From Eledone cirrhosa (Eukaryota): DNA of 64,000 bases. Within the stretch, counting starts at the first letter, position 1. Each line of letters opens with the position of its first letter. The notes below the pieces were generated by a model. It made no database searches, was not told where the DNA came from, and saw nothing but the letters and a program-made list of their open reading frames with translations. Location: the NCBI GenBank assembly GCA_964016885.1, contig OZ024741.1, positions 238,142,001 through 238,206,000 of the forward strand. The letters run 5' to 3'. The position numbers and the translations under genes were made by a program. Of the stretch, positions 3,738 to 64,000 are shown in pieces.

Positions 3738-3963
3738 CTGTGGATTATAAAAGTCAGTAGAGTGAATCACAATATTCAATAGAAAAAGGTTTATATTTAT
3801 TATATAAAATATTTCATGTACAACATAAAAGAGAAATTTTATAATAAATATTATTTATTAAATTCTACAAGTGGAGAGATGCTATACTGAAAAATCAGAG
3901 AACAGCAGATGTAAAATGATAATGGTCAGAACAATAACAGAAATATTTAAAAATAATATTTAC

Positions 3964-6366
3964 CTGTGGAACTGGTGGAAGTCTCCTTTGTGTTGTTGAG
4001 AATTTCCACTCATCTGGTAGCTGCTCCATCTCTGGATAAAACTGACTTTTAGATTTTATTGTCTGAAGATTTCTGTTAAATATCTCTTCTGCATTTCTAG
4101 TTATTGCAACAGGATTGTTAGTCTGATACAATAATTGTCTCATCTCAGTCTGAGACAGAAAGTTTGGATTATCTGCTGTCGTAGGTGAGTTATTGGTGTG
4201 ATTAATACATCTGAAAACACACAGTGTTATTGACACTACAATAGCCACAGATATTATTACAGCTGCTGCTACAATGATAATTACCCAAGTCATATTGAGG
4301 TTGTTACCAGACTGTAGGTGGACAGCATTCAACATTGGAGATGTATCATTACTAACAAACAATGTTAGTATGATAACAGTTGTTGCTGATTGAACTGGAG
4401 TACCACCATCTTTCACTATAAACTGTAGGTCATATGTTCCTGCATCATTTTGGTAAACTGTCCGAGAGAAAGATAAGACACCAGTGTGGGAGTTGACTGT
4501 AAACAGGTTTTTATCATTAGATCTCAGTATTCCATATGTGAGGAAAGCATTGTTTCCAGTGTCTTTGTCAGAGGCTTTCAGAATTGTGATGTCTTTCTTA
4601 CTGTGTGGATGGTAGTGGGCATCTAGATTGTAAGGGTCATTAATAGGAAAGGTAAAATAGGGAGCATTATCATTTTTATCTAGAATCTCAATAACAATAT
4701 TGGCAGTGTCATTCAGAGAAGGTGTTCCATTATCTTTGACTAAAACCTGGAATTTATAGATGTCTTTCACTTCCCGATCTATTGATTGTGATGTAGAAAT
4801 AAATCCATATTTTGTAAGTTGGAAAGGAATGTTATCATTGTTGTTATCATTGATGATAGAATATGTAAGCTGACCCCCATCATCAAGATCAGGGTCTGTA
4901 GCATTGATGAAGCCAATAGGGAAGTCAACTTTCTGGTTTTCATAGGTGAGGAATTGGAATGTATCTTTGGTAAAATGTGGCTGTACATCATTGACATCAG
5001 TTACTTTCACTGAGAAATATTTCTTAGTTTCTAGTTTAGGTGATCCCATGTCATGACATACAATAGATACTTTATAGTGGTCCTTTATTTCTCTATCAAG
5101 ATGGCCTTTAATAATCATCTTATATTCTTTAGAATCTATTTTGGTAAGTTTAAATTTATCATGTTCTAAATCACAGCTAACCTCACCATTAGGTCCAACA
5201 TCAGTGTCAGTGACCATAACATAAGCTATAAAACTACCAACTTTACTTGCTTCTGAAACTCCTGTGGAACTTTCTGTTAAAGGTGATACAAAATCTATAT
5301 TTATCACTGGAGCATTATTCTGGTCATTAATTATGTGAATTTGAACTGTGGTTACAGAACTAAGTTGAGGATTCCCTCCATCTCTGGCTTCAATAAATAA
5401 TTTATAAGATTGCATCTTACTAAAGTGAAAATTATCATGTAAAAATATCTCTCCAGTTTTCTTAATCAATACAAAATATTTCAGTGCATTTCGAGATGTT
5501 TTATGGTTGAAATGATAAGAAATCTTTCCATTGTGTCCAGAATCTAGATCTGTGGCTTTTAATGTAAGAATTGGTAAATGCCTTTGATGTGAATTATTTA
5601 TAGATATGTTGTAGACTTTCTGTGAAAATACAGGTGTGTTATCATTAACATCTGTCACAGCTATGTGTACCTTGAGGGTAGCTGTTTGGGGAGGGTTACC
5701 TCTATCTTTAGCTTCAAGTGTCAACATATATGAGTTTTTAACTTCCCTGTCTAATTTCTCTTCTAAAGTTAATTCGGGTATGAAAATGCCATCATGTCGC
5801 CTTGTGATGGAGAGAGAAAATGGTTCTCTCTTACTTTTTCTAATCATGTATGTAATTTGGGAATTCTTTATTGATATATCTTGATCAATGGCATTTGGAA
5901 GAGAGAATTTATCTCCTTTTCTAGCTACCTCAAAAAATTCAATTTTAACTTCATTCTTGGGAAATTCTGGTGGATGGTCATTGATGTCTTCTATAATTAT
6001 TTTTATCTTCAATATCTTCATAAATGTTTCTGCTTTCCTCACTGCTACTTTAACAATTCTGGAACATTCCTTGTTATATGTACACAGTAACTCAGCATCC
6101 AGTGTCTGTGTAGTGTATAGTTTTCCTGTGTTGGTGACATTAAATAAGTGAGAACCACTTGACACTGTCCTTTGTAGTTGTGTAAATGTAATGAGAGTGT
6201 GTTGATGTGTGAGTGAGTGTGTTAAGTTAGAATCAACAGCAATGTCTCCTATATAGGTGTGAGGACTGTCTTCTTCATTGACATGGTATGTAATGTCTAT
6301 AGACAGTACAAGGTTGTACAAGTACAGTAAATGTAGTAGACAGAGTAGACCAATATATGTTGTCAT
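3964..6366 (-). CDS. Protocadherin G1 large exon: signal peptide, 6 cadherin repeats, TM, proximal tail
   Basis: Cadherin motifs (DINDH, LDRE, DVNDNTPVF, ATDLD), EC1 C-X5-C loop LCTYNKEC, hydrophobic TM WVIIIVAAAVIISVAIVVSITL; donor CAG|GTAAAT at 3963; exon acceptor at 6404, 38 nt upstream of the ATG. Confidence 0.95.
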
Positions 6367-12478: not shown

Positions 12479-14915
12479 CTACGTTGGCTGTAGATAGGTA
12501 TCTTGTACTTGTTGTCCCTTTTGTATTGTGGCTGGAACTGGATTGTCATTGGTATATTCTGGAAAATATAAAATATAGAAACAGAAATTATATTTCAAAA
12601 TAACAACTCTGTAAATATATAAACATTGATGTTATATTACAATAGCTATAACATTATATATTGTCTAAAGAGAATTATATTTCTATGTTATGTTTAGATA
12701 AAAGTTACCTGGTTGTGCAGATATCTCTTCACATAAGTCTTGCCAATACTCTTGTGACCTTCTCTGGTTTTTTGTGATGTTAAGGTGTCACTGTTGTAGT
12801 TAGACATGCTGAGACTGGTGCGACCTTCATGACTATGGATTGAATCACATCTCTGTGGATTATGAAAGTCAGTAGAGTGAATCACAATATTCAACAGAAA
12901 AAGGTTTATATTTATTATATAAAATATTTCACATACAACAAAAGAAAGGATTTTTAAAATGAATATCATTTATTAAATGCTACAAGTGGAGAGATGCTGA
13001 TGAGAACGATGATGATGATCAGATTAACAACAGAAATATTTAAAAATAATATTTACCTGTGGAACTGGTGGAAGTCTCTTTTGTGTTGTTGAGAATTTCC
13101 ACTCATCTGGTAGCTGTTCCATCTCTGGATAAAACTGACTTTTAGATTGTAGTGTCTGAAGATTTCTGTTAAATATATCTTCTGCATTTCTCGTTATTGC
13201 AACAGGATTGTTGGTGTGATACAATAATTGTCTCATCTCAGTCGGAGACAGAAAGTTTGGATTATCTGCTGTTGTAGGTGAGTTATTGGTGTGATTAACA
13301 CTTCTGTAAACACACAGTGTTATTGACACTACAATAGCCACAGATATTATTACAGCTGCTGCTACAATGATAATTACCCAAGTCATATTGAGATTGGTAC
13401 CAGTCTGTAAGTGGACTGCAGTCAACATTGGAGATGTATCATTACTAACAAACAGTGTTAGTATGATCACAGTTGTTGCTGATTGAACTGGAGTACCACC
13501 ATCCTTCACTATAAACTGTAGGTCATATGTTCCTGCATCATTTTGGTAAACTGTCCAAGAGAAAGATAAGACACCAGTATGGGAGTTGACTGTAAACAGG
13601 TTTTTATCATTAGATCTCAGTATTCCGTATGTGAGGAAAGCATTGTTTCCAGTGTCTTTGTCAGAGGCTTTCAGAATTGTGATGTCTTTCTTATTGTGTG
13701 GATGGTAGTGGACATCTAGATTGTAAGGGTCATTAATAGGAAAGGTAAAATAGGGAGCATTATCATTTTTATCTAGAATCTCAATAAACTATAAAACTAT
13801 CTAGTTCACTGTCTTCTGAAACTGCTGTGGAACTTTCTGTTAAAGGAGATACAAAATCTATATTTATCACTGGAGCATTATTCTGGTTATCAATTGCATT
13901 AATTTGAACTGTGGTTACTGAACTGAGGGGTGGTTTTCCTTCATCGCTGTCTTCAATAAATAATTTATAGGACTGCATCTTACTAAAGTGAAAATTATCA
14001 TGTAAAAATATCTCTCAAGTTTTCTTATCTAATACAAAATATTTCTGGGCATTTCGAGATGTTTTATGGTTGAAATGGTAAGAAATCTTCCCATTGTGTC
14101 CAGAATCTTTTAAAGCAAGAATTGGTAAATGTCTTTGATGTGAATTATTTATAGACATGTTGTAGACTTTCTGTGAAAATACAGGTGTGTTATCATTGAA
14201 ATCTGTCACAGTTATGTATACCTTGAGGGTAGCTGTTTGGGGAGGGTTCCCTCCATCTTTTGCTTCAAGTGTCAACATATATGAGTCTCTTTCTTCCCTG
14301 TCTAATTTGTCTTGTAAAGTTAATTCAGGTATGAAGACTCCATCATGTCACCTTGTGACAGAAAGGGAAAACGGTTCTTTCTTACTTTTCTTAATCATGT
14401 ATGTAATTTGAGAATTCTTTATTGAAATGTCTTGATCAATGGCATTTGAAAGAAAGATTTTATCTTCTTCTTTTCCATCCTGTTCAGCAAATTCAATTTC
14501 AACTTTATTCTTGGGAAATTCTGGTGAATGGTCATTAATGTCTTCTATTAATATTTTTATCTTAAGAATTTTCATACAGGCTTTTCCTGTCCTCACTGCT
14601 ACTTTAACAATTCTGGAACATTCCTTGTTATATGTACACAGTGACTCAGCATCCAGTGTCCGTGTAGTGTATAGTTTTCTAGTGTTGGTGACATTGAATA
14701 AATGAGAACCACTTGACACTGTCCTTTGTAGTTGTGTAAATGTAATGAGAGTGTGTTGTTGATGTGTAAGAGAGTGTGTTAAGTTAGAATCAACAGCAAT
14801 GTCTCCTATATAGGTGAGGACTGCCTTCTTCGTTGACATGGTATGTAATGTCAGTAGACAGTACAAGAGTCATCAGTAAATGTAGTAGACAAAGTAGACC
14901 AATATATGCTGTCAT
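12479..14915 (-). pseudogene. Protocadherin G2 pseudogene (exons 14953-13057, 12852-12709, 12558-12479)
   Basis: 2-nt deletion near 14815, nonsense codons at 14348 and 14015, 12-nt deletion near 14108, ~530-bp deletion at ~13787 removing most of EC4 and EC5, 4-nt deletion in the 148-nt exon (now 144 nt). Confidence 0.92.
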
Positions 14916-15109
14916 GTCTGGAATTCTTCCTCACACTTTAGCAGTTGAAATTTCTACAAAAGACAACAGAAATATTTTAATTCTAAGCCAAATAACCTGT
15001 AGTAGTAGTAGTACTAATAAATTGGCACATGCAGGAATAGTACAAACAATAAACACAGCCCCTTGAACAACTGTGGGAAGACAGTTGCTAGAGCCTGAAA
15101 TGACATGCG

Positions 15110-18495: not shown

Positions 18496-18517
18496 CATAA
18501 TTTCAAATATGTTACAC

Positions 18518-21249: not shown

Positions 21250-21989
21250 CTATGGATTATAAAAAAAAGCAGAGTGAATCATGATGTTAACTTGAATGAA
21301 TATTTATGATTATTATCTAAAATATTCCAGGTATAATACAAGAAAGAATTCCATTCATAAAGAATTATTAAAGGATGCTAGAATCACACCAATAGAAATA
21401 TTACACTTAAACAATTGTGGAGATAAAATTATGTAAACATTATATTCTTTCAATAAAGAAAAGATTTTGTTAAGAATGTCCCCATAAAAAGAGGCTGGTG
21501 ATACACCATAATACAAAAGACCTATTCAACAGTATAAACACTGTGACATTAGAGAAAATGTGGTGCAAGATTAGAGGCAACAGTGTTTGCATATCAAATA
21601 AAGACACTAAAGGGTTTGAGAGTATTTTTCAGCCTAACCAAGCATATGATAACCCCTCAAGTACTGGTGCCATGATAAAATGCATCCAATACCTAGCATA
21701 CAAATGATGCCAAATATGAAAGTTACAAACCGAGAGGTGATTGCTTCAACTTGTTTTGGACTATGATAACTCATCAAATCTCAGCCCAACAGGAAAGAGA
21801 ATAGGTTAAATTAAATATTTATATAAAAATATTCTGAAGATAAAATTAAAGATAAGATTTTTGTGAAATTCCTAAAATATAAAAAATATAATACAAAATA
21901 AAAAATATGATGAGAAGTTTTAAAATATCTATTAAAAATATAATAAAACTGTATTATTCAATACTAGAATTATTTCAAATAATATTTAC

Positions 21990-24389
21990 CTGTGGAACTG
22001 GTGGAAGTCTCCTTTGTGTTGTTGAGAATTTCCACTCATCTGGTAGCTGTTCCATCTCTGGATAAAACTGACTTTTAGATTTTATTGTCTGAAGATTTCT
22101 GTTAAATATCTCTTCTGCATTTCTAGTTATTGCAACAGGATTGTTGGTATGATACAGTAATTGTCTCATCTCAGTCTGAGACAGAAAGTTTGAATTATCT
22201 GCTGTTGTAGGTGAGTTATTGGTGTGATTTATACATCTGAAAACACACAGTGTTATTGACACTACAATAGCCACAGATATTATTACAGCTGCTGCTACAA
22301 TGATAATTACCCAAGTCATATTGAGGTCATTACCAGACTGTAAGTGGACAGCATTCAACATTGGAGATGTATCATTACTAACAAACAATGTTAGTATGAT
22401 AACAGTTGTTGCTGATTGAACTGGAGTACCACCATCTTTCACTATAAACTGTAGGTCATATGTTCCTGCATCATTTTGGTATACTGTCCGAGAGAAAGAT
22501 AAGACACCAGTGTGGGAGTTGACTGTAAACAGGTTTTTATCATTAGATCTCAGTATTCCATATGTGAGGAAAGCATTGTTTCCAGTGTCTTTGTCAGAGG
22601 CTTTCAGAATTGTGATGTCTTTCTTACTGTGTGGATGGTAGTGGACATCTAGATTGTAAGGGTCATTAATAGGGAAGGTAAAATAGGGAGCATTATCATT
22701 TTTATCTAGAATCTCAATAACAATATTGGCAGTGTCATTCAGAGAAGGTGTTCCATTATCTTTGACTAAAACCTGGAATTTATAGATGTCTTTCACTTCC
22801 CGATCTATTGATTGTGATGTAGAAATAAATCCATATTTTGTAAGTTGGAAAGGAATGTTATCATTGTTGTTATCATTGATGATAGAATATGTAAGTAGAC
22901 CTCCATCTTCAAGATCAGGGTCTGTAGCATTGATGAAGCCAATAGGGAAGTCAACTTTCTGGTTTTCATAGGTGAGGAATTGGAATGTATCTTTGGTAAA
23001 ATGTGGCTGTACATCATTGACATCAGTTACTTTCACTGAGAAATATTTCTTAGTTTCTAGTTGAGGTGATCCCATATCATGACATACAATAGATACTTTA
23101 AAGTGATCGTTTATTTCTCTATCAAGATGTCCCTTAACAATTATTTTATATTCTTTAGAATCTATTTTGGCAAGTTTAAATTTATCATGTTTTAAATTAC
23201 AGCTAACTGCACTATTAGGTCCAACATCAGTGTCAGTGACCATAACATAAGCTATAAAACTATCTAGTTCACTGTCTTCTGAAACTGCTGTGGAACTTTC
23301 TGTTAAAGGGGATACAAAATCTATATTTATCACTGGAGCATTATTTTGGTTATTAATAACATTAATTTGAACTGTGATTACTGAACTAAGGGGAGGTTTT
23401 CCTCCATCACGCACTTCAATAAATAATTTATAAGGTTGCATCTTACTAAGGTGAAAATTATCATGTAAAAATATCTCTCCAGTTTTCTTATTCAATACAA
23501 AATATTTCTGGACATTTCGAGATGTTTTATGGTTGAAATGATAAGAAATATTCCCATTGTGTCCAGAATCTAGATCTGTGGCTTTTAAAGTAAGAATTGG
23601 TAAATGTTTTTGATGTGAATTATTTATAGATATGTTGTAGACTTTCTGTGAAAATACAGGTGTATTATCATTAACATCTGTCACAGCTATGTGTACTTTG
23701 AGGGTAGCTGTTTGGGGAGGGTTCCCTCCATCTTTAGCTTCAAGTGTTAACATATATGAATCTTTTACTTCTCTGTCTAATTTCTCTTCCAAAATTAGTT
23801 CAGGTATATAGACACCATCATGTCGCTTCTTGACAGAGAGATAAAATGGTTCTCTCTTATATTTCTTAATAATATATGTAATTTGAGAATTCTTTATTGA
23901 AATATCTTGATCAATGGCATTTGGAAGGGAGATTTTACTTCCTTTCAGGTCTTTTTCAGAAAATTCTATTTCAAATTCATTCTCTGGAAATTCTGGTGAA
24001 TGGTCATTGAGGTCTTCAATTAATATTTTTATCTTAAGAATTTTCATGAAACTTTTTCCTTTCCTCACTGCTACTTTAACAATTCTGGAACATTCCTTGT
24101 TATATGTACACAGTGACTCAGCATCCAGTGTCTGTGTAGTGTATAGTTTTCCTGTGTTGGTGACATTGAATAAGTGAGAACCACTTGACACTGTCCTTTG
24201 TAGTTGTGTAAATGTAATGAGAGTGTGTTGTTGATGTGTAAGAGAGTGTGTTAAGTTAGAATCAACAGCAATGTCTCCTATATAGGTGTGAGGACTGCCT
24301 TCTTCATTGACATGGTATGTAATGTCTATAGACAATACAAGGGTCATCAATAAATGTAGTAGACAGAGTAGAGCAATATATGTTGTCAT
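21990..24389 (-). CDS. Protocadherin G3 large exon (800 codons)
   Basis: Intact signal-6EC-TM ORF; CAG|GTAAAT donor; acceptor at 24427. Confidence 0.95.
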
Positions 24390-30152: not shown

Positions 30153-30618
30153 CTGTGGATTATGAAAGAAAGCAAAGTGATAACAACCTCATTATAAATA
30201 AATTAAATAAGTAAAAGTCCTAGAAGTGGGAGTAAACTTCTAATATCTTGACCTTTGTAGAGTCTTGTCTTTTGTGAAGCTTATTATAGGAGTGTTTTAC
30301 AAGGTGGTCATTAAATCAATGGAGATTAACATGTGATATAGAATAATTCCAAAAGAAATATGATTATATATTTTCTTTATTGGTGTAAATAAATAGAAAG
30401 CCATTTATGGGTTAAAAATATAAATCTGTAAATATTAAATCTAGTTAATTATATGAAATGTAAAATTCCGTAAAAATGATTTTCTTCCAGTAAAGAAAGG
30501 TTTTATTGTTAATTAGACCCTATAATGTATGACATATTAGAATGTCAATTAAATTGGAAATATTAAAATATGTTTCTAAGTTTAATCAATAGTAGAAGTG
30601 TTGTAAACAAATATTTAC

Positions 30619-33018
30619 CTGTGGAACTGGTGGAAGTCTCCTTTGTGTTGTTGAGAATTTCCACTCATCTGGTAGCTGTTCCATCTCTGGATAAAACTGA
30701 CTTTTAGATTTTATTGTCTGAAGATTTCTAGCAAATATATCTTCTGCATTTCTGGTTATTGCAACAGGATTGTTGGTCTGATACAGTAATTGTCTCATCT
30801 CAGTCTGAGATAGAAAGTTTGGATTATCTGCTGTTGTAGGTGAGTTATTGGTGTGATTAATACATCTGAAAACACACAGTGTTATTGACACTACAATAGC
30901 CACAGATATTATTACAGCTGCTGCTACAATGATAATTACCCAAGTCATATTGAGGTTGTTACCAGACTGTAAGTGGACAGCATTCAACATTGGAGATGTA
31001 TCATTACTAACAAACAGTGTTAGTATGATAACAGTTGTTGCTGATTGAACTGGACTACCACCATCTTTCACTATAAACTGTAGGTCATATGTTCCTGCAT
31101 CATTTTGGTAAACTGTCCGAGAGAAAGATAAGACACCAGTGTGGGAGTTGACTGTAAACAGGTTTTTATCATTAGATCTCAGTATTCCATATGTGAGGAA
31201 AGCATTGTTTCCAGTGTCTTTGTCAGAAGCTTTCAGAATTGTGATGTCTTTCTTACTGTGTGGATGGTAGTGGACATCTAGATTGTAAGGGTCATTAATA
31301 GGAAAGGTAAAATAGGGAGCATTATCATTTTTATCTAGAATCTCAATAACAATATTGGCAGTGTCATTCAGAGAAGGTGTTCCATTATCTTTGACTAAAA
31401 CCTGGAATTTATAGATGTCTTTTACTTCCCGATCTATTGACTGTGATGTAGAAATAAATCCATATTTTGTAAGTTGGAAAGGAATGTTATCATTGTTGTT
31501 ATCATTGATGATAGAATATGTAAGTAGACCTCCATCTTCAAGATCAGGGTCTGTAGCATTGATGAAGCCAATAGGGAAGTCAACTTTCTGGTTTTCATAA
31601 GTGAGGAATTGGAATGTATCTTTGGTAAAATGTGGCTGTACATCATTGACATCAGTTACTTTCACTGAGAAATATTTCTTAGTTTCTAGTTGAGGTGATC
31701 CCATGTCATGACATACAATAGATACTTTATAGTGATCCTTTATTTCTCTATCAAGATGTCCCTTAACAATTAAATTATATTCTTTAGAATCTATTTTGGT
31801 AAGTTTAAATTTATCATGTTTTAAATTACAGCGAACCTCACCATTAGGTCCAACATCAGTGTCAGTGACCATAACATAAGCTATAAAACTATCTAGTTCA
31901 CTGTCTTCTGAAACTCCTGTGGAACTTTCTGTCAAAGGTGATACAAAATCTATATTTATTACTGGAGCATTATTTTGATTATTAATTACATTAATTTGAA
32001 CTGCAGTTACCGAACTCAAAGGAGGTTTTCCTTCATCTCGTGCTTCAATAAATAACTTATAAGATTGCATCTTACTAAAGTTAAAATTATCATGTAAAAA
32101 TATCTCTCCAGTTTTCTTATCTAATACAAAATATTTCTGAGCATTTCGAGATGTTTTATGGTTGAAATGATAAGAAATCTTCCCATTGTGTCCAGAATCT
32201 AGATCTGTGGCTTTTAAAGTAAGAATTGGTAAATGTCTTTGATGTGAATTATTTATAGATATGTTGTAGACTTTCTGTGAAAATACAGGTGTGTTATCAT
32301 TAACATCTGTCACATCTATGTGTACCTCGAGTGTAGCTCTTTGGGGAGAGTTCGCTCCATCTTTAGCTTCAAGTTTTAACATATATGAGTCTTTTATTTC
32401 TCTGTCCAATTTCTCTTCCAGAATTAGTTCAGGTATATAAACACCATCATGTCGCTTTTTGACGGAGAGAGAAAATGGTTCTCTTTCATTTGTTTTAATC
32501 ATGTATGAAATATGAGAATTTCTTAATGAAATATCTTGATCAATGGCATTTGGAAGAGAAATCTTTGCTCCTTTTGTGTCTCTCTCAGTAAATTCAATTT
32601 CAACTTCATTCTTGGGAAACTCTGGTGAATGATCATTGATGTCGTCTATCAATATTTTTACTTTAAGAATTTTCATGAAACTTTTTCCTTTCCTCACTGC
32701 TACTTTAACAATTCTGGAACATTCCTTGTTATATGTACACAGAGACTCAGCATCCAGTGTCTGTGTAGTGTATAGTTTTCCTGTGTTGGTGACATTAAAT
32801 AAGTGAGAACCACTTGACACTGTCCTTTGTAGTTGTGTAAATGTAATGTGAGTGTGTTGTTGATGTGTGAGAGAGTGTGTTAAGTTAGAATCAACAGCAA
32901 TGTCTCCTATATAGGTGTGAGGACTGTCCTCTTCATTGACATGGTATGTAATGTCTATAGACAGTACAAGGGTCATCAGTAAATGTAGTAGACAGAGTAG
33001 ACCAATATATGTTGTCAT
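30619..33018 (-). CDS. Protocadherin G4 large exon (800 codons)
   Basis: Intact signal-6EC-TM ORF; donor CAG|GTAAAT; acceptor at 33056. Confidence 0.95.
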
Positions 33019-39372: not shown

Positions 39373-39532
39373 TTCTGTAATAATTCTGTAAAAATTATTT
39401 TCTTCTAGTAAAGAAAAGTTTTTTGTTAATAAGATTCTATAATGTGTGACATATTAAAATGTCAATAAAACATGTTTCTAAAATATTATCAAAGGTTGAT
39501 CAATACTAGAATTGTTGAAAACAAATATTTAC

Positions 39533-41932
39533 CTGAGGAACTGGTGGAAGTCTCCTTTGTGTTGTTGAGAATTTCCACTCATCTGGTAACTGTTCCATCT
39601 CTGGATAAAACTGACTTTTAGATTTTATTGTCTGAAGATTTCTGTTAAATATTTCTTCTGCATTTCTAGTTATTGCAACAGGATTGTTAGTCTGATACAG
39701 TAATTGTCTCATCTCAGTCTGAGACAGAAAGTTTGAATTATCTGCTGTTGTAGGTGAGTTATTGGTGTGATTAATACATCTGAAAACACACAGTGTTATT
39801 GACACTACAATAGCCACAGATATTATTACAGCTGCTGCTACAATGATAATTACCCAAGTCATATTGAGGTTGGTACCAGACTGTAAGTGGACAGCATTCA
39901 ACATTGGAGATGTATCATTACTAACAAACAATGTTAGTATGATAACAGTTGTTGCTGATTGAACTGGACTACCACCATCTTTCACTATAAACTGTAGGTC
40001 ATATGTTCCTGCATCATTTTGGTAAACTGTCCGAGAGAAAGATAAGACACCAGTGTGGGAGTTGACTGTAAACAGGTTTTTATCATTAGATCTCAGTATT
40101 CCATATGTGAGGAAAGCATTGTTTCCAGTGTCTTTGTCAGAGGCTTTCAGAATTGTGATGTCTTTCTTACTGTGTGGATGGTAGTGGACATCTAGATTGT
40201 AAGGGTCATTAATAGGAAAGGTAAAATAGGGAGCATTATCATTTTTATCTAGAATCTCAATAACAATATTGGCAGTGTCATTCAGAGAAGGTGTTCCATT
40301 ATCTTTGACTAAAACCTGGAATTTATAGATGTCTTTCACTTCCCGATCTATTGATTGTGATGTAGAAATAAATCCATATTTTGTAAGTTGGAAAGGAATG
40401 TTATCATTGTTGTTATCATTGATGATAGAATATGTAAGTTGACCTCCATCTCCAAGATCAGGGTCTGTAGCATTGATGAAGCCAATAGGGAAGTCAACTT
40501 TCTGGTTTTCATAGGTGAGGAATTGGAATGTATCTTTGGTAAAATGTGGCTGTACATCATTAACATCAGTTACTTTGACTGAGAAATATTTCTTAGTTTC
40601 TAGTTGAGGTGATCCCATGTCATGACATATAATAGATACTTTATAGTGATCCTTTATTTCTCTATCAAGATGTCCCTTAACAATTAAATTATATTCTTTA
40701 GAATCTATTTTGGCAAGTTTAAATTTATCATGTTCTAAATCACAGCTAACCGCACCATTAGGTCCAACATCAGTGTCAGTGACCATAACATAAGCTATAA
40801 AACTATCTAGTTCACTGTCTTCTGAAACTGCCGTGGAACTTTCTGATAAAGGAGATACAAAATCTATATTTATCACTGGAGCATTATTCTGGTTATTAAT
40901 TATGTGAATTCGAACTGTGGTAACAGACTTTTTGGGTGGAATGCCTCCATCACGTGCTTCAATAAATAATTTATAAGATTGCATCTTACTAGAGTGAAAA
41001 TTATCATGTAAAAATATCTCTCCAGATTTCTTTTCTAATACAAAATATTTCTGGACATTTCGAGATGTTTTATGGTTGAAATGATAGAAAATCTTTCCAT
41101 TGTTTCCAGAATCTAGGTCTGTGGCTTTTACTGTAAGAATTGGTAAATGTCTTTGATGTGAATTATTTATAGATATGTTGTAGACCTTCTGTGAAAATAC
41201 AGGTGTGTTATCATTAACATCTGTCACAGCTATGTGTACCTTGAGTGTAGCTGTTTGGGGAGGGTTCCCTCCATCTTTAGCTTCAAGTGTCAACATATAT
41301 GAATCTCTTACTTCTCTGTCTAATTCATGTTCTAGAATAAGTTCGGGCATGAAGATACCATCAGGTTGTTTTGTGCCATAGAGAGAAAATGGCTCACTCT
41401 TACTTTTCTTAATCAGGTATGCAATCTGAGAATTTCTTAATGAAATATCTTGATCAATGGCATTTGGAAGAGAGATTTTACTTCCTTTAAAGTCTCTTTC
41501 TGAAAATTCAATTTCAACTGCATTCTCTGGAAATTCTGGTGAATGATCATTGATGTCTTCTATTAATATTTTTATCTTAAGAATTTTCATAAAGGTTTTT
41601 CCCTTCCTCACTGCTACTTTTACAATTCTGGAACATTCCTTGTTATATGTACACAATAACTCAGCATCTAGTGTCTGTGTAGTGTATAGTTTTCCTGTGT
41701 TGGTGACATTGAATAAGTGAGAACCACTTGACACTGTCCTTTGTAGTTGTGTAAATGTTATGAGAGTGTGTTGTTGATGTGTAAGAGAGTGTGTTAAGTT
41801 AGAATCAACAGCAATGTCTCCTATATAGGTGTGAGGACTGTCTTCTTCATTGACATGGTATGTAATGTCTATAGACAGTACAATGTTTATCAATAAATGT
41901 AGTAGACAGAGTAGACCAATATATGTTGTCAT
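39533..41932 (-). CDS. Protocadherin G5 large exon (800 codons)
   Basis: Intact ORF; donor CAG|GTAAAT; acceptor at 41970. Confidence 0.95.
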
Positions 41933-44763: not shown

Positions 44764-44843
44764 CTATGTTGGCTGTAGATAGGTATCTTGTACTTGTTGT
44801 CCCTTTTGTATTGTGGCTGGAACTGGATTGTCATTGGTATATT
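44764..44843 (-). CDS. Protocadherin G6 last coding exon
   Basis: TTTTCCAG acceptor, 80 nt to TAG TAG. Confidence 0.85.
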
Positions 44844-45002: not shown

Positions 45003-45150
45003 CTGGTTGTGCAGATATCTCTTCATATGGTTTAGTCTTGCCAATACTCTTGTAACCTTCTCTGCTTTTTTGTGATGTTAAGGTGTCACTGTTGTAGTTA
45101 GACATGCTGAGACTGGTGCGACCTTCGTGACTATGGATTGAATCACATCT
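45003..45150 (-). CDS. Protocadherin G6 148-nt exon
   Basis: CCACAG acceptor, CAG|GTAATT donor. Confidence 0.85.
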
Positions 45151-45740: not shown

Positions 45741-48137
45741 CTGAGGAACTGGTGGAAGTCTCCTTTGTGTTGTTGAGAATTTCCACTCATCTGGTAGCTG
45801 TTCCATCTCTGGATAAAACTGACTTTTAGATTTTATTGTCTGAAGATTTCTAGCAAATATATCTTCTGCATTTCTGGTTATTGCAACAGGATTGTTAGTC
45901 TGATACAGTAATTGTCTCATCTCAGTCTGAGATAGAAAGTTTGGATTATCTGTTGTTGTAGGTGAGTTATTGGTGTGATTAATACATCTGAAAACACACA
46001 GTGTTATTGACACTACAATAGCCACAGATATTATTACAGCTGCTGCTACAATGATAATTACCCAAGTCATATTGAGGTTGTTACCAGACTGTAAGTGGAC
46101 AGCATTCAACATTGGAGATGTATCATTACTAACAAACAGTGTTAGTATGATCACAGTTGTTGCTGATTGAACTGGAGTACCACCATCTTTCACTATAAAC
46201 TGTAGGTCATATGTTCCTGCATCATTTTGGTAAACTGTCCGAGAGAAAGATAAGACACCAGTATGGGAGTTGACTGTAAACAGGTTTTTATCATTAGATC
46301 TCAGTATTCCATATGTGAGGAAAGCATTGTTTCCAGTGTCTTTGTCAGAGGCTTTCAGAATTGTGATGTCTTTCTTACTGTGTGGATGGTAGTGGACATC
46401 TAGATTGTAAGGGTCATTAATAGGAAAGGTTAAATAGGGAGCATTATCATTTTTATCTAGAATCTCAATAACAATATTGGCAGTGTCATTCAGAGAAGGT
46501 GTTCCATTATCTTTGACTAAAACCTGGAATTTATAGATGTCTTTCACTTCCCGATCTATTGATTGTGATGTAGAAATAAATCCATATTTTGTAAGTTGGA
46601 AAGGAATGTTATCATTGTTGTTATTGATGATAGAATATGTAAGTTGACCTCCATCTCCAAGATCAGGGTCTGTAGCATTGATGAAGCCAATAGGGAAGTC
46701 AACTTTCTGGTTTTCATAGGTGAGGAATTGGAATGTATCTTTGGTAAAATGTGGCTGTACATCATTGACATCAGTTACTTTCACTGAGAAATATTTCTTA
46801 GTTTCTAGTTGAGGTGATCCCATGTCATGACATACAATAGATACTTTATAGTGGTCCTTTATTTCTCTATCAAGATGTCCCTTAACAATCATTTTGTATT
46901 CTTTAGAATCTATTTTGGTAAGTTTAAATTTATCATGTTTTAAATCACAGCTAACCTCACCATTAGGTCCGACATCAGTGTCCGTGACCATAACATAAGC
47001 TATAAAACTATCTAGTTCACTGTCTTCTGAAACTGCTGTGGAACTTTCTGTTAAAGGTGATACAAAATCTATATTTATCACTGGAGCATTATTTTGGTTA
47101 TTAATTACATTAATTTGAACTGCAGTTACTGAACTAAGTGAAGGTTTTCCTTCATCTCGTGCTTCAATAAATAACTTATAAGATTGCATTCTACTGAAGT
47201 GAAAATTATCATGTAAAAATATCTCTCCAGTTTTCTTATTCAATACAAAATATTTCTGGGCATTTCGAGATGTTTTATGGTTGAAATGATAAGAAATCTT
47301 TCCATTGTTTCCAGAATCTAGATCTGTGGCTTTTATTGTAAGAATTGGTAAATGTCTTTGATGTGAATTATTTATAGATATGTTGTAGACTTTCTGTGAA
47401 AATACAGGTGTGTTATCATTAACATCTGTCACAGCTATGTGTACCTTGAGGGTAGCTGTTTGGGGAGGATCACCTCCATCTTTAGCTTCAAGTGTCAACA
47501 TATATGAGTCTTTTATTTCCCTGTCTAATTTGTTTTCTAAAGTTAATTCAGGTATGAAGGCCCCATCATGTCGCCTTGTGACAGAGAGAGAAAATGGTTC
47601 TTTTTTACCTTCATTAATCATATATGTAATTTGAGAATTCTTTATTGAAATATCTTGATCAATGGCATTTGGAAGAGAGAATTTATCTCCTTTTCTAGCT
47701 ATCTCAAAAAATTCAATTTCAACTTCATTCCTTGGAAATTCTGGTGAATGGTCATTGATGTCTTCTATTATTATTTTTAACTTCAGAACCTTCATAAAGG
47801 CTTTTCCTTTCCTCACTGCTACTTTAACAATTCTGGAACATTCCTTGTTATATGTACACAGTGATTCAGCATCCAGTGTCTGTGTAGTGTATAGTTTTCC
47901 TGTGTTGGTGACATTAAATAAGTGAGAACCACTTGACACTGTCCTTTGTAGTTGTGTAAATGTAATGAGAGTGTGTTGTTGATGTGTAAGAGAGTGTGTT
48001 AAGTTAGAATCAACAGCAATGTCTCCTATATAGGTATGAGGACTGTCCTCTTCATTGACATGATATGTAATGTCTATGGACAGTACAAGGGTCATCAGTA
48101 AATGTAGTAGACAGAGTAGACCAATATATGTTGTCAT
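45741..48137 (-). CDS. Protocadherin G6 large exon (799 codons)
   Basis: Intact ORF; donor CAG|GTAAAT; acceptor at 48175. Confidence 0.95.
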
Positions 48138-51965: not shown

Positions 51966-52700
51966 CTGTCAATTATAAAAGATATCAGAGTGAAACATCA
52001 TGTTAGCTTGAATAAATCTTTATGTTTATTATGTAAAATAAAAGAATTTAAAGAATGGAAGAATCATACCAACAGAGATATTATAAGAAAATATTCTCTC
52101 TGTTAATGTAAATAATTTTGAGATCTAATTGTGTAAAAGATGAAATTTACTCTTAAGAAAATCCAAAAATCTAAATACAGCAAAATGTAAATAAAAATAT
52201 AAATAAAAGTATAAATTTAAAACAACATTTTAAGAATTTCACAAAAATAATTGTGTTTCTTTTTATCTAATGATACCATGGATCCTCACTTGAAATGCTT
52301 CCTACAAAAAGACAACATACTGGAAAAGTTTTTTTTGAAAGACCAGTAATAACCCATGCATGAAAGTCAACTAACTTAACACCAAGATTGAGGTTTAAAG
52401 AAAAAGCAAAGGACAATACAGCTGAGTACCAGTGACATTTAAGTTGAAGTCAAAATGCAGAGGGATGAAAGTATCACTTCCAACACTGTAACAATTCCGC
52501 TAATCCATAGCACTGGACTAATATTTTATACATTGTCACCGAAAGGATGATAGAAAGGTTGACCTTAGAAGGACTGAATACAAAGTGCAGAGAGCTGGAA
52601 CAAATAGAGTAAGGCATTCAATAAGATATGCTATGACTTAATCAATGGGTTATCAAACATATATTATTCAATACTAGAATTTGTGTAAACAAATATTTAC

Positions 52701-55097
52701 CTGTGGAACTGGTGGAAGTCTCCTTTGTGTTGTTGAGAATTTCCACTCATCTGGTAGCTGTTCCATCTCTGGATAAAACTGACTTTTAGATTTTATTGTC
52801 TGGAGATTTCTGTTAAATATCTCTTCTGCATTTCTAGTTATTGCAACAGGATTGTTGGTATGATACAGTAATTGTCTCATCTCAGTCTGAGACAGAAAGT
52901 TTGGATTATCTGCTGTTGTAGGTGAGTTATTGGTGTGATTAATACATCTGAAAACACACAGTGTTATTGACACTACAATAGCCACAGATATTATTACAGC
53001 TGCTGCTACAATGATAATTACCCAAGTCATATTGAGATTGTTACCAGTCTGTAAGTGGACAGCATTCAACATTGGAGATGTATCATTACTAACAAACAGT
53101 GTTAGCATGATAACAGTTGTTGCTGATTGAACTGGAGTACCACCATCTTTCACTATAAACTGTAGGTCATATGTTCCTGCATCATTTTGGTAAACTGTCC
53201 GAGAGAAAGATAAGACACCAGTGTGGGAGTTGACTGTAAACAGGTTTTTATCATTAGATCTCAGTATTCCATATGTGAGGAAAGCATTGTTTCCAGTGTC
53301 TTTGTCAGAAGCTTTCAGAATTGTGATGTCTTTCTTACTGTGAGGATGGTAGTGGACATCTAGATTGTAAGGGTCATTAATAGGAAAGGTAAAATAAGGA
53401 GCATTATCATTTTTATCTAGAATCTCAATAACAATATTGGCAGTGTCATTCAGAGAAGGTGTTCCATTATCTTTGACTAAAACCTGGAATTTATAGATGT
53501 CTTTTACTTCCCGATCTATTGATTGGGATGTAGAAATAAATCCATATTTTGTAAGTTGGAAAGGAATGTTATCATTGATGTTATCATTGATGATAGAATA
53601 TGTAAGTAGACCTCCATCTCCAAGATCAGGGTCAGTAGCATTGATGAAGCCAATAGGGAAGTCAACTTTCTGGTTTTCATAGGTGAGGAATTGGAATGTA
53701 TCTTTGGTAAAATGTGGCTGTACATCATTGACATCAGTTACTTTGACAGAGAAATATTTCTTAGTTTCTAGTTGAGGTGATCCCATGTCATGACATACAA
53801 TAGATACTTTATAGTGGTCCTTTATTTCTCTATCAAGTTGTCCCTTAATAATTAAATTGTATTCTTTAGACTCTATTTTAGCAAGTTTAAATTTATCATG
53901 TTTTAAATCACAGCTAACCTCACCATTAGGTCCAACATCAGTGTCAGTGACCATAACATAAGCTATAAAACTACCAATTTTACTTGCTTCTGAAACTGCT
54001 GTGGAACTTTCTGTTAAAGGTGATACAAAATCTATATTTATCACTGGAGCATTATTCTGGTTATTGATTGTGTGAATTCGAACTGTGGTAATAGACTTTT
54101 TTGGTGGAATGCCTCCATCACGTGCTTCAATAAATAATTTATAAGATTGCATCTTACTAGAGTGAAAATTTTCATGTAAAAATATCTCTCCAGTTTTCTT
54201 ATCTAATACAAAATATTTCTGGGCATTTCGAGATGTTTTATGGTTGAAATGATAAGAAATCATTCCATTGTTTCCAGAATCTAGGTCTGTGGCTTTTACT
54301 TTAAGGATTGGTAAATGCCTTTGATGTGAATTATTTATAGATATGTTGTACACTTTCTGTGAAAGTACAGGTGTGTTATCATTTACATCTGTCACAGCTA
54401 TGTGTACTTTGAGGGTAGCTGTTTGGGGAGGGTTCCCTCCATCTCTAGCTTCAAGTGTCAACATATATGAGTCTTTTACTTCCCTGTCTAATTTCTCTTC
54501 TAGAATCAGTTCAGGTATAAAGACACCATCATCTTGCTTTGTGATAGAGAGAGAAAATGGTTCTCTCTTACTTTCCTTAATGTATGTAATATGAGAATTC
54601 TGTATTGAAACATCTTGATCAATGGCATTTGGAAGAGAGATTTTACTTCCTTTCAAGTCTCTTTCTGAAAATTCAATTTCAACTTCATCCTCTGGAAATT
54701 CTGGTGAATGATCATTGATGTCTTCTATTAATATTTTTATCTTAAGAATTTTCATAAAGTTTTCTCCCTTCCTCACTGCTACTTTAACAATTCTGGAACA
54801 TTCCTTGTTATATGTACACAGTGATTCAGCATCCAGTGTCTGTGTAGTGTATAGTTTTCCTGTGTTGGTGACATTAAATAAGTGAGAACCACTTGACACT
54901 GTCCTTTGTAGTTGTGTAAATGTAATGAGAGTGTGTTGTTGATGTGTAAGAGAGTGTGTTAAGTTAGAATCAACAGCAATGTCTCCTATATAGGTGTGAG
55001 GACTGTCTTCTTCATTGACATGATATGTAATGTCTATAGACAGTACAAGGGTCATCAGTAAATGTAGTAGACAGAGTAGACCAATATATGTTGTCAT
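52701..55097 (-). CDS. Protocadherin G7 large exon (799 codons)
   Basis: Intact ORF; donor CAG|GTAAAT; acceptor at 55135. Confidence 0.95.
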
Positions 55098-60959: not shown

Positions 60960-61625
60960 CTGTGGAATATAAAAGAAAGCAGAGTGAATCATGATGTCAA
61001 CTTGAATAAATACTTATATTTATTGTCTAAAATATTTCTGGTGTAACATAAGAAAGAATTCCATTCATCTCGGTTTATCATAAATGAAAGCAGAGCATGA
61101 TCTTAACTTGAATAAACACATATATTCTAGATCATTCCTTGACAGATGTGAGGGAATCATCTTATAAAGTGTAATACCTCTGTAAATTAATAATTTTAAC
61201 AAATCTATTATCATACATATATGACCACTAATTAGTATATGTAATAAACTGAATTGATTTAAGTACATTACCAATAGATTTTGTCACTAAAGTGACAAAG
61301 GAAAACCAATGTCAGGGGTATTTGAAATTAGATAAAGTGACAGCAGTTTTAAGTGGAAGGAAGATGAGGAAAAGGAAGGCTGAGGAGAACTTCGGCAGAA
61401 ATGGTGAAAGCTTGTTCCAAGACTTACATAAACAGTTAGATGGAAGGACTCTGCACTAGAGAGGACCTGAGTGACATGAAAAAACAACCAGGAAAATGAT
61501 GATCAAGATCTATTTAGAAAATGAGCTGATTCATATCATATGTAAAATAAATATTAATATTCTGCTGCAGCAAAAAGACAATTGAATTTAAGTGTTACCT
61601 TTAGATAGAATATTGAAATACTCAC

Positions 61626-64000
61626 CTGAGGAACTGGTGGAAGTCTCCTTTGTGTTGTTGAGAATTTCCACTCATCTGGTAGCTGTTCCATCTCTGGATA
61701 GAACTGACTTTTAGATTTTATCGTCTGGAGATTTCTAGCAAATATATCTTCTGCATTTCTGGTTATTGCAACAGGATTGTTGGTCTGATACAGTAATTGT
61801 CTCATCTCAGTTTGAGACAGAAAGTTTGGATTATCTGCTGTTGTAGGTGAGTTATTGGTGTGATTAATACATCTGAAAACACACAGTGTTATTGACACTA
61901 CAATAGCCACAGATATTATTACAGCTGCTGCTACAATGATAATTACCCAAGTCATATTGAGATTGTTACCAGTCTGTAAGTGGACAGCATTCAACATTGG
62001 AGATGTATCATTACTAACAAACAGTGTTAGTATGATAACAGTTGTTGCTGATTGAACTGGAGTACCACCATCTTTCACTATAAACTGTAGGTCATATGTT
62101 CCTGCATCATTTTGGTAAACTGTCCGAGAGAAAGATAAGACACCAGTGTGGGAGTTGACTGTAAACAGGTTTTTATCATTAGATCTCAGTATTCCATATG
62201 TGAGGAAAGCATTGTTTCCAGTGTCTTTGTCAGAGGCTTTCAGAATTGTGATGTCTTTCTTACTGTGTGGATGGTAGTGGACATCTAGATTGTAAGGGTC
62301 ATTAATAGGAAAGGTAAAATAGGGAGCATTATCATTTTTATCTAGAATCTCAATAACAATATTGGCAGTGTCATTCAGAGAAGGTGTTCCATTATCTTTG
62401 ACTAAAACCTGGAAATTATAGATGTCTTTTACTTCCCGATCTATTGATTGTGATGTAGAAATGAATCCATATTTTGTAAGTTGGAAAGGAATGTTATCAT
62501 TGTTGTTATCATTGATGATAGAATATGTGAGTTGACCTCCATCTTCAAGATCAGGGTCTGTAGCATTGATGAAGCCAATAGGAAAGTCAACTTTCTGGTT
62601 TTCATAGGTGAGGAATTGGAATGTATCTTTGGTAAAATGTGGCTGTACATCATTGACATCAGTTACTTTCACTGAGAAATATTTCTTAGTTTCTAGTTGA
62701 GGTGATCCCATGTCATGACATGCAATAGATACTTTATAGTGGTCCTTTATTTCTCTATCAAGATGTCCCTTAATAATCATTTTATATTCTTTAAAATCTA
62801 TTTTGACAAGTTTAAATTTATCATGTTTTAAGTCACAGCTAACCTCACCATTAGGTCCAACATCAGTGTCAGTGACCATAACATAAGCTATAAAACTATC
62901 TAGTTCACTGTCTTCTGAAACTGTTGTGGAACTTTCTGTTAAAGGTGATACAAAATCTATATTTATCAATGGAGCATTATTCTGGTTATTGATTATGTAA
63001 ATATGAACTGTAGTTACAGAACTTAACGAGGGATTTCCTTGATCTTGTACTTCAATATATAAATTGTAAGTCTGTTTCCTGCCTAAAGTAAAACTATCTT
63101 TTAAATATATTTCCCCATTTGTTTCTTTCAATAAAAAATGTTTTAGTGAATGAATGGAAGTTTTATGGTTGAAATGATAAGAAATCTTTCCGTTGTTTCC
63201 AGAATCTAAATCCGTGGCTTTTAAAGTAAGAATTGGTAAATGTCTTTGATGTGAATTTTTTATAGATATGTTGTAGACTTTCTGTGAAAATACAGGTGTG
63301 TTATCATTAACATCTGTCACATCTATGAGTACCTTGAGTGTAGCTGTTTGGGGAGGGTCCCCTCCATCTTTAGCTTCAAGTGTCAACATATATGATTTCT
63401 TTAGTTCCCTGTCTAATTTATCTTTTAGACTCAGTCCTGGAATGAGGATGCCATCATGTCGTTTTGTCATATACAAAGAAAATGGGTTTCTTTCCTGTGT
63501 CACTATTCTATATGTAATTTGTGAATTTATGGTGGTAATATCTCTATCTATGGCAAATGGAATTATCTTTCTCGTTCCTTTAAAACTGTCCTCAGCAAAT
63601 TGAACAGTGATTTTGTCAACAGAAAACTCTGGGGAATGGTCATTGATGTCTTCAATGATTATCTTGAGTTTTAACATCTTCATAAATGTTTTTCCTTTCC
63701 TCACTGCTACTTTAACAATTCTGGAACATTCCTTGTTATATGTACACAGTGACTCAGCATCTAGTGTCTGTGTAGTATATAGTTTTCCTGTGTTGGTGAC
63801 ATTGAATAAGTTAGAACCACTTGACACCGTCCTTTGTAGTTGTGTAAATGTAATGAGAGTGTGTTGTTGATGTGTAAGAGAGTGTGTTAAGTTAGAATCA
63901 ACAGCAATGTCTCCTATATAGGTGTGAGGACTGTCATTTTCATTGACATGGTATGTAATGTCAGCAGATACTATAACAGACTGTTGTAAATATAGTAAAC
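61626..64000 (-). CDS. Protocadherin G8 large exon, 5'-truncated by the window edge
   Basis: Frame stays open to the edge (..LLYLQQSVIVSADITYHVNENDSPH..); donor CAG|GTGAGT; the ORF-track start at 63827 is internal. Confidence 0.93.

Follow-up and report, generated by a model that had tools for sequence, protein, structure and literature searches.

The 64-kb stretch of DNA analysed here (the window) lies in a tandem array of at least 37 octopod protocadherin genes, in which EC1 and the region from EC4 to the cytoplasmic tail appear to be homogenised within the species, while EC2 and EC3 escape and carry an old divergence. We put the probability of this reading at roughly 0.75. Homogenisation would most likely proceed through gene conversion or unequal crossing-over. 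The escape of EC2-EC3 is probably due to selection that preserves distinct binding specificities.

Seven intact protocadherin genes and one pseudogene are found in the window (Table 1). The seven open reading frames encode about 800 amino acids each and are all on the minus strand. Around the window, the array extends over about 0.55 Mb and comprises at least 40 copies on one strand, at least 37 of which are intact. Of 40 copies that were checked, 37 retain the reading frame: 7 of the 8 in the window and 30 of the 32 taken from elsewhere in the array. Positions 5300-5980 correspond to residues 130-356 (approximately) of g1 and thus to EC2-EC3. The start codon of g7 was found within the next 400 bases of the genome beyond the window, and the signal peptide and EC2-EC3 of this gene are both of a distinct type. 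The pseudogene retains an exon 2 and an exon 3 of its own (12482-12858). Two intergenic ORFs gave no Pfam match.

The genes are protocadherins with three exons each. Pfam recognises a Cadherin_2 domain followed by five Cadherin stretches (6.2e-69), and the AF2 model contains six beta-sandwich units, consistent with six EC repeats, as well as a single transmembrane (TM) helix at residues 690-721. The six repeats are arranged in tandem and joined by Ca-binding linkers, as expected of a protocadherin, and the proteins match solved EC1-6 protocadherin structures over their full length. In the tail, Pfam returned no cytoplasmic cadherin domain, which is an absence of a match only. Ectodomain and TM helix are encoded by one large exon, seen as an uninterrupted ORF of about 2.4 kb that runs up to a GT donor. 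In g5, this exon is spliced to exons 590 nt and 159 nt downstream, as evidenced by one RNA-like contig (run X5), in which the joint between exons 2 and 3 (44843/45003) is canonical (CT..AC on the plus strand). According to tblastn, exons 2 and 3 are private to each unit; instead of shared constant exons, every unit has two small 3' exons of its own. The depth pattern of the contigs from runs X1-X3 fits multi-copy DNA. Base differences between contigs were uninformative on RNA editing.

Table 1. Protocadherin features in the window, with positions counted from its first nucleotide.
Feature	Position	Strand	Basis or remark
g1 large-exon ORF	3895-6366	-	ORF list; contains coordinates 5300-5980
g1 exon 1: signal peptide, EC1-EC6, TM, tail start	3964..6366	-	ORF, Pfam, donor CAG/GTAAAT (slash marks the splice site)
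Divergent island 2 in g1: EC3 D/E-G strands to EC3-EC4 linker	5290..5484	-	g5 residues about 294-358
Divergent island 1 in g1: EC1 G strand to EC2 F strand	5698..6051	-	g5 residues about 105-222
Pseudogene copy	13024..14977	-	frame breaks; internal deletion of about 520 nt, equivalent to EC4-EC5
g2 large-exon ORF	21975..24389	-	
g3 large-exon ORF	30586..33018	-	
g4 large-exon ORF	39506..41932	-	
g5 exon 3, coding part including stop (...EYTNDNPVPATIQKGQQVQDTYLQPT)	44764..44843	-	tblastn with C-termini of relatives
g5 exon 2 (RCDSIHSHEGRTS...)	45003..45150	-	tblastn with C-termini of relatives; X5 contig joining exons 1-2-3
g5 exon 1, source of reference numbering	45741..48137	-	donor position agrees with spliced contig, run X5
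g6 large-exon ORF	52674..55097	-	
g7 large-exon ORF	61554..64000	-	continues past window end

Silent divergence was measured along the exon as pS (Nei-Gojobori, 30-codon windows) over the 21 pairs of the seven window genes, and again for 37 array genes. It is strongly non-uniform: pS is about 0.33-0.61 in two islands versus 0.00-0.13 in EC1 and EC5-TM. Among the seven genes, island 1 (alignment codons 106-225) reaches 0.33-0.44 and island 2 (codons 301-360) 0.32-0.42, with a trough of 0.10-0.17 at codons 226-285 between them. EC1 (codons 46-105) has a pS of 0.06-0.11 and EC5-TM (codons 451-735) of 0.00-0.09. With 37 genes, the values rise to 0.35-0.57 in island 1 and 0.50-0.61 in island 2, versus 0.004-0.07 in EC5-TM. 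When codon columns were shuffled, the observed variance of windowed pS was reached in 0 of 2000 permutations for the seven genes and likewise for the 37. Between segments, silent divergence differs 10- to 100-fold. Pairwise dS has a median of 0.96 in the islands versus 0.058 in EC1 plus EC5-TM (666 pairs, 12 saturated), and island dS hardly follows that of the conserved parts (Spearman 0.21).

An earlier note had described EC1 and the region from EC5 to the tail as near-identical, also at silent sites, and EC2-EC3 as hypervariable; the profile confirms this observation, with some corrections. All 14 peptide strings that it quoted are present. The one at the start of EC2 is unique in each of the seven genes; the one in the EC3 F-G region is unique in five of seven, with g4 and g6 sharing DGGIPPKKS. 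The variability is concentrated in the two islands without being strictly confined to EC2-EC3. The divergent block begins about 25 codons upstream of EC2, inside the G strand of EC1. The signal peptide diverges as well, EC4 has minor variable patches, and the genes of the window differ fairly little in the first half of EC3.

In EC5-tail, pS rises with distance along the array from 0.052 to 0.091. In EC1 it is near 0.10 at every separation up to 0.55 Mb, in line with an action across the whole array. The nucleotide distance between units falls abruptly some 70 nt before the ATG and increases once more past the donor. Intron 2 and the 3' flank are about 90 % identical, and the intergenic DNA of the repeat units 66-86 %.

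We infer conversion from these sliding-window profiles together with segment trees. All cross-species tests were made on protein sequences only and included proteins of Argonauta, O. sinensis and O. vulgaris. On EC5-tail, all 37 genes of the array form one clade (support 83), as do 25 Argonauta rows (support 99, starred). Identity in this segment is 0.974-0.988 within the window versus at most 0.939 to other species; the window paralogues are closer here than any cross-species pair. On EC2-EC3, genes cluster by type across species, with at least six label changes forced by starred branches, and a single clade of the array's own genes is rejected (dlnL 455, AU p=2.3e-6). For example, g7 groups on EC2 with Argonauta P0015, O. 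sinensis P0004 and O. vulgaris P0020 (support 96, starred), a clade that is rejected on EC5-tail (dlnL 272, p about 1e-203). A single Argonauta clade is rejected on EC2 (p=1.8e-5). On EC2-EC3, the best own-foreign pair is more similar than 613 of the 666 pairs within the array, and on EC5-EC6 it is more similar than 87 of 666. Since EC5-tail sorts by species and EC2-EC3 by types that cross species, the scaffold appears to evolve in concert while EC2-EC3 escapes, in agreement with the homogenisation that the earlier note had cited for vertebrate clusters.

The AU tests find significantly discordant segment trees for the array; for the seven window genes alone, the discordance is not significant. 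A single clade of these seven is compatible with both EC2 (AU p=0.15) and the EC3 C-terminal half (p=0.126), and six of them, g1-g6, may have separated later than the species did. The EC5-tail data are also compatible with a pair of L020 and Argonauta P0018 (p=0.19), and the EC1 tree gives no resolution. Within the variable part, the EC2 and EC3 trees are discordant with each other (p=0.0018), and close paralogues carry some of the EC2 and EC3 types in different combinations.

The EC2-EC3 divergence consists of retained old differences and is not the product of fast evolution. The divergence behind the term 'hypervariability' is real; its connotation of rapid or positive evolution is not supported. 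In the islands, dN/dS is 0.23-0.52 and never above 1, and pN/pS among the seven genes does not exceed 0.65 in any sliding window. A search for dN/dS above 1 by sliding window, structural element and pair divergence returned nothing convincing. The single window with dN/dS above 1 has a near-zero pS, and selection for diversity is therefore not demonstrated. The low dN/dS of the islands is compatible with a passive relic: if mismatch blocks conversion once copies differ, old differences would persist without any selection or recognition code.

The positions of the variable residues speak in the same direction. The earlier note had placed them at the vertebrate specificity interface, a claim that found little backing. 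Interface and coupling positions were picked by eye from the couplings of PMC5001838 (part 1 of 193), and others were taken from the text of PMC5106212. Four or more residue states occur at 29 of 40 mapped interface positions versus 88 of 182 other EC2-EC3 positions, and pN/pS is 0.47-0.54 versus 0.38-0.46. The enrichment in variability is modest, with a Mann-Whitney p of 0.03 when 37 genes are used and of 0.10 with the seven of the window, and the difference in pN/pS is small; buried and exposed positions were pooled here and in the covariation analysis. Covariation of 19 mapped vertebrate pairs is not significant (mean percentile 0.59, p=0.11), and variation is spread over most of EC2. The match of variable sites to vertebrate interface positions, as judged from sequence, is therefore weak.

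Nevertheless, we regard a passive relic as unlikely. The island borders fall at the same domains as in the independently expanded vertebrate clusters, and frames are intact in nearly all copies. The highest pN/pS values are found at the EC2 A and B strands, the EC2 CD loop and the EC3 Phe-X10-Phe loop. Moreover, the short EC1 tract is homogenised even across differing signal peptides and EC2-EC3 types, which points to selection on which parts are kept uniform and which are not.

True hypervariability, with a recent expansion of the array followed by rapid divergence of EC2-EC3 through local hypermutation or positive selection, is very improbable. It would accommodate the single clade that the seven window genes can form on EC2 and EC3, and the higher dN/dS of the closest pairs (0.52, n=7). 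However, silent sites have diverged to the same degree as replacement sites, and the units are old, because their intergenic DNA is 14-34 % divergent. EC2-EC3 types are also common to Argonauta and Octopus species (support 98-100, starred), and the protein trees indicate that these types predate speciation.

Even less probable is that direct selection on synonymous sites, for instance on RNA structures for A-to-I editing or on splicing signals, keeps silent divergence low in EC1 and EC5-tail without conversion. Homogeneity does stop near the exon borders, and the accessible part of PMC6339937 mentions heavy editing of cephalopod protocadherin mRNAs. Synonymous constraint would, however, keep orthologues alike too, whereas the identity of EC5-tail proteins falls from 97-99 % inside the window to 86-94 % between species, and these proteins cluster by species. 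The similarity of intron 2 and the 3' flank likewise speaks against it. An assembly or polishing artefact that averaged the repeats can practically be dismissed: word depth of the contigs is many-fold higher over the uniform parts, as expected where multiple copies impede assembly, but these parts hold differences that grow with array distance, and the same pattern is seen in annotated proteins of three other octopod species.

We regard the array as a convergent copy of the conversion pattern of vertebrate clustered protocadherins, in which segmental gene conversion was reportedly described by Noonan and colleagues in 2004. Like vertebrate Pcdh alpha and gamma, it consists of same-strand tandem large exons, each coding for six EC domains plus a TM helix, its dS is highest in EC2/EC3 and lowest in EC5/EC6, and 1:1 orthology is absent between distant species. 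The parallel drawn in the earlier note extends to the identity profile, which is almost equal to that of mouse Pcdh alpha: EC1 98, EC2 72, EC3 C-terminal half 77, EC4 90 and EC5-tail 98 % in the octopod array, and EC1 96, EC2 69, EC3 59, EC4 85 and EC5 98 % between mouse alpha isoforms (Etlioglu et al. 2016, PMC4978886, Table 1). Unlike in the vertebrate clusters, each octopod gene has its own exons 2 and 3 in place of shared constant exons, and EC1 is as uniform as EC5-EC6. These comparisons draw on PMC4978886, PMC5001838 and PMC5106212.

The earlier note had further suggested independent evolution of the same recognition geometry. The expansion in cephalopods is indeed described as independent of the vertebrate one in the available parts of PMC9068888 and PMC4978886. 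The antiparallel EC1-4 dimer, however, is argued to be older than the split of the protocadherin families (Nicoludis et al. 2016, PMC5001838, in part), and a shared geometry would therefore be inherited. Hence, the EC1-4 dimer probably goes back to the protocadherin ancestor and did not evolve independently.

The published cephalopod arrays of O. bimaculoides, D. pealeii and E. scolopes (Albertin et al. 2022, PMC9068888) and of O. vulgaris (Styfhals et al. 2019, PMC6339937), as far as the accessible sections describe them, are similarly built: entire multi-exon genes are duplicated head to tail in sub-arrays, and the arrays also contain pseudogene fragments. In the same sections, 'recent duplication or gene conversion' is suggested for very similar paralogues. 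A domain-resolved account of the pattern in cephalopods was not found in the literature at hand; Albertin et al. 2015 and Wang & Ragsdale 2017 may say more. Relative to these sources, three points are new: the presence of two divergent islands, the disagreement of EC2-EC3 with EC5-tail across species, and the reshuffling of EC2 against EC3 types.

If the structures and assays of vertebrate protocadherins are a guide, the octopod proteins would form antiparallel EC1-4 dimers in trans, with specificity set by EC2:EC3. Uniform EC1 and EC4 domains could then provide a generic affinity, uniform EC5-EC6 promiscuous cis pairing, and a uniform tail common signalling. Homogenisation would thereby assume the role of the shared constant exons of vertebrates. 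The reshuffling of EC2 against EC3 types fits poorly with strictly co-adapted EC2:EC3 pairs. More speculatively, octopods might have independently reached the vertebrate solution for a neuronal surface barcode, in which array-wide conversion keeps the scaffold (EC1/EC4 affinity, EC5-EC6 cis pairing, and the tail as a stand-in for constant exons), selection shields EC2:EC3 cassettes, and occasional recombination between the two cassettes yields new specificities. We hold this extended model only tentatively.

These results address the open issue of whether cephalopod protocadherin expansions serve as a self/non-self code like the vertebrate clusters. That an independently expanded array with differently organised genes homogenises and spares its domains as the vertebrate clusters do is indirect evidence for the same division of labour, and suggests that conversion can substitute for shared constant exons in keeping a common intracellular output. 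The question becomes testable, with EC2 and EC3 as the domains to swap while the others are held constant; natural paralogue pairs differ almost only there, and the pairs g4/g6 and g1/g5 show little difference.

The combination of a constant scaffold with a few variable recognition domains is also known from insect Dscam1 with its many isoforms, which differs in having an Ig fold and in generating diversity by alternative splicing of one gene. Among solved structures, delta-2 and gamma-B protocadherins are alike the nearest, and the delta-2 entries PDB 6vg1, 6vg4, 5iu9 and 6vfu are best or near-best matches (E 1e-88 to 1e-63). The non-clustered delta-2 protocadherins share the six EC domains, but they are single genes and do not form an array with variable EC2-EC3.

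In the window, which lies at 238.142-238.206 Mb on contig 2 of its genome and has a G+C content of ~32 %, seven intact protocadherin ORFs of ~800 aa each (g1-g7) are all encoded on the minus strand. Neighbours lie 6-9 kb from each other, except for g1 and g2, which are separated by ~15 kb. Pfam assigns a Cadherin_2 domain at the N-terminus and five Cadherin repeats to the large ORF, and in the predicted structure (AlphaFold2, mean pLDDT 74) six repeats fold as beta-sandwiches and a TM helix spans 690-721. Among solved structures, ectodomains of delta-2 and gamma-B protocadherins (6vg1, 6e6b, 5t9t, 6vg4) come nearest in sequence. The closest database proteins are 'protocadherin beta-15-like' entries, at 86-87 % identity for Octopus sinensis and O. 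vulgaris and 84 % for Argonauta hians, which points to an octopod source with no proteins of its own in that database. The g1-g2 gap holds a pseudogene whose N-terminus is disrupted; it has frame breaks and, compared with g5 (our reference for numbering), lacks ~520 nt internally. Two intergenic ORFs in the same gap gave no Pfam match at E up to 0.1 and may be decayed repeat or transposon sequence.

Features in the window, and vertebrate interface positions (gamma-B numbering) mapped onto g5
Feature	Position	Strand	Remark
Intergenic ORF	8998-9462	plus	154 aa; g1-g2 gap
Pseudogene, same family	13024-14977; own exons 2 and 3 at 12482-12858	minus	in ~15-kb g1-g2 gap
Intergenic ORF	18496-18882	plus	128 aa; g1-g2 gap
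EC4 A-B cassette	g5 residues ~370-378, e.g. 47004-47030	minus	pN/pS ~0.96
g7	61554-64000	minus	MSGNII signal-peptide type
Vertebrate 111	g5 E142		6 residue states in 37 paralogues
Vertebrate 125	g5 P156		1 state in 37 paralogues
Vertebrate 128	g5 I159		2 states in 37 paralogues
Vertebrate 206	g5 N240		1 state in 37 paralogues
Vertebrate 253	g5 K288		4 states in 37 paralogues
Vertebrate 257	g5 N292		6 states in 37 paralogues
Vertebrate 294	g5 E329		7 states in 37 paralogues; within the EC3 F-G motif of the earlier note

Conservation of every large ORF ends directly after ...PPVPQ, at a donor reading CAG|GTAAAT or CAG|GTGAGT. A tblastn search with the C-termini of relatives places two small exons (RCDSIHSHEGR... 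and ...EYTNDNPVPATIQKGQQVQDTYLQPT) 3' of each gene, the pseudogene included. In a contig from the public sequencing run X5, g5 exon 1 is joined to exon 2 (590 nt skipped) and exon 2 to exon 3 (159 nt skipped, canonical ends). Each gene is thus complete, with three exons and 3' exons of its own, in agreement with Albertin et al. 2022 (PMC9068888) on cephalopods. An arrangement in which variable exons feed shared constant exons is ruled out by the same exons and contig. Across 44700-48200 of the window, the uniform exon parts reach contig word depths in the hundreds in runs X1-X3, but the depth is 1-25 in intron 1 and low in parts of EC2-EC3. The pattern is compatible with putative DNA reads at ~20x from each of about 40 near-identical copies.

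A 401-nt tail probe returned 159 candidates, of which 40 were scored; all 40 scored copies lie on the same strand at 238.03-238.58 Mb. Thirty of the 32 copies fetched outside the window have an intact ORF, L025 and L031 being broken (longest ORFs 373 and 421 aa), and these 30 together with the seven window genes form our analysis set of 37. Three signal-peptide types occur in the array (MTTYIGLLCLL..., MSGNIIYLV... and MIIINTL...; noted for g7, L001-L006 and L011), accompanied by EC2-EC3 types. Since g7 stands alone among MTTY-type genes, the types are interspersed along the array.

Silent sites are nearly identical among paralogues in EC1 and from EC5 to TM, as the earlier note had observed, and strongly uneven along the exon. 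Per silent site, the seven genes show 0.33-0.44 silent differences (pS; Nei-Gojobori, 30-codon windows) at alignment codons 106-225 and 0.32-0.42 at 301-360, with a trough of 0.10-0.17 between these two islands, 0.06-0.11 in EC1 and 0.00-0.09 from EC5 to TM. Shuffling of codon columns reached this unevenness in 0/2000 trials. In the 37 genes, pS rises to 0.50-0.61 in the islands, near saturation, with 0.065-0.13 in EC1 and 0.004-0.07 in EC5-TM; pairwise dS has a median of 0.96 in the islands versus 0.058 in EC1 plus EC5-TM. All peptide strings quoted in the earlier note are present. The EC2-start string is unique in 7/7 genes, but the EC3 F-G string, said to differ in every gene, is the same in g4 and g6. 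Divergence was also said to be confined to EC2-EC3, which has to be amended on four points: the divergent block already opens in the EC1 G strand; signal peptides diverge as well; EC4 carries small variable patches; and among the window genes EC3 is rather uniform over its first half. Over the whole array (238.03-238.58 Mb), EC1 (~240 nt) is an isolated homogenised tract with divergent sequence on both sides.

We consider it very probable (about 0.85) that the scaffold evolves in concert while EC2-EC3 escapes. The decisive evidence comes from trees and tests with protein sequences of three other octopods: EC5-tail sequences sort by species, EC2-EC3 sequences by types shared across species. On EC5-tail, 37/37 own genes form one clade (support 83), as do 25/25 Argonauta rows (99*); the seven window genes also come out as one clade, at 92. 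In the EC2-EC3 tree, foreign genes are interspersed with the own genes, which split into at least six groups. Here, the g7 type joins Argonauta P0015 and Octopus P0004/P0020 (98*), the distal ten own genes join 11 Argonauta and 4 O. vulgaris rows (100*), and array copy L020 joins Argonauta P0018 (100*). A single clade of own genes is rejected on EC2-EC3 (dlnL 455, AU p=2.3e-6), the EC2 grouping on EC5-tail (dlnL 272, p ~1e-203), and monophyly of Argonauta on EC2 (p=1.8e-5). When only the seven window genes are considered, the AU test does not reject their monophyly (p=0.15 on EC2, 0.126 on the EC3 C-half), and a small AU test of the L020-P0018 pair on EC5-tail is not significant. The best own-foreign pair is more similar than 613/666 own pairs on EC2-EC3, and than 87/666 on EC5-EC6; the EC1 tree across species gives no resolved grouping.

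Homogenisation acts across the whole array. At gene distances up to 0.55 Mb, silent divergence stays at ~0.10 in EC1 (rho -0.02); with growing distance it goes up only from 0.052 to 0.091 in EC5-tail, and in the islands it climbs from 0.34 to 0.63. The repeat units are old, because their intergenic DNA is only 66-86 % identical in alignment. Aligning six units gives nucleotide distances of 0.45-0.57 upstream, 0.03-0.04 from ~70 nt before the ATG, and 0.3-0.5 right after the donor. The cited parts of two cephalopod papers make general remarks only, ascribing high similarity perhaps to recent duplication or conversion (PMC6339937, PMC9068888). Full-text searches turned up no analysis of cephalopod protocadherin paralogues at the level of domains; an earlier mention may exist.

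The island divergence is old, and 'hypervariability' in the sense of fast evolution did not hold up: pN/pS is at most ~0.65 in every window of the seven genes, and island dN/dS in the 37 genes is 0.52 among the closest pairs, declining to 0.23 among the most distant ones. The top uncorrected ratios (0.7-1.0) fall in the EC2 A strand, EC2 B strand, EC2 CD loop, EC3 Phe-X10-Phe loop and EC4 A-B patch. Positive selection is thus not demonstrated; the ratios point to a constraint looser than that on the scaffold.

The EC2 clade of g2, g3, g4 and g6 (96*) is rejected on the EC3 C-half (p=0.0018), where g4 and g6 group with L005, L007 and L013, and g2 and g3 with g5 and L009. Deep types are concordant between both islands, so exchange has taken place among close relatives, in the more uniform inter-island stretch.

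The vertebrate facts invoked earlier are published. Vertebrate protocadherins form antiparallel EC1-4 dimers, with EC2/EC3 as the main specificity region and EC1/EC4 giving mostly non-specific affinity (Nicoludis et al. 2016, PMC5001838), although Goodman et al. 2016 (PMC5106212) place specificity residues across EC1-4. In vertebrates, dS peaks in EC2/EC3 and is lowest in EC5/EC6, which Etlioglu et al. 2016 (PMC4978886) interpret as conversion that spares EC2-EC3, and the per-domain identities of mouse alpha isoforms are nearly copied by the octopod array (PMC4978886). Shared constant exons, defining for the vertebrate clusters, are absent from the octopod locus, which is therefore classed as working like these clusters, not as a member. 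Nicoludis et al. (PMC5001838) hold that the EC1-4 dimer is older than the divergence of the protocadherin families, so calling the geometry 'independently evolved' was probably wrong; delta-protocadherin EC1-4 structures in the PDB list fit this early origin. If octopod proteins use the EC1-4 geometry, it would most likely be inherited. The independently evolved part is the array with its regime of homogenisation with escape. Octopod EC2-EC3 could reasonably be a selected homophilic code, at even odds or less.

That the variation may sit on the vertebrate specificity interface is weakly supported by residue comparisons uncorrected for surface exposure. Published positions were mapped via alignment to gamma-B2 (5t9t), with numbering equal to the gamma-C3 couplings file at every anchor checked; some are variable and others not (table). 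At least four states occur at 29/40 positions from vertebrate EC2-EC3 coupled pairs versus 88/182 other EC2-EC3 positions (p=0.03 for 37 genes, 0.10 for the seven window genes, 0.18 for top-ranked pairs only), and pN/pS is 0.47-0.54 at mapped positions versus 0.38-0.46 elsewhere. Across 151 octopod sequences, the 19 mapped pairs show no significant covariation (mean percentile 0.59, p=0.11), with three of them above the 93rd percentile. Further along the exon, the EC4 A-B cassette has two states, SEASK(V/I)GSF in g1 and g6 and SEDSELDSF in the other five window genes.
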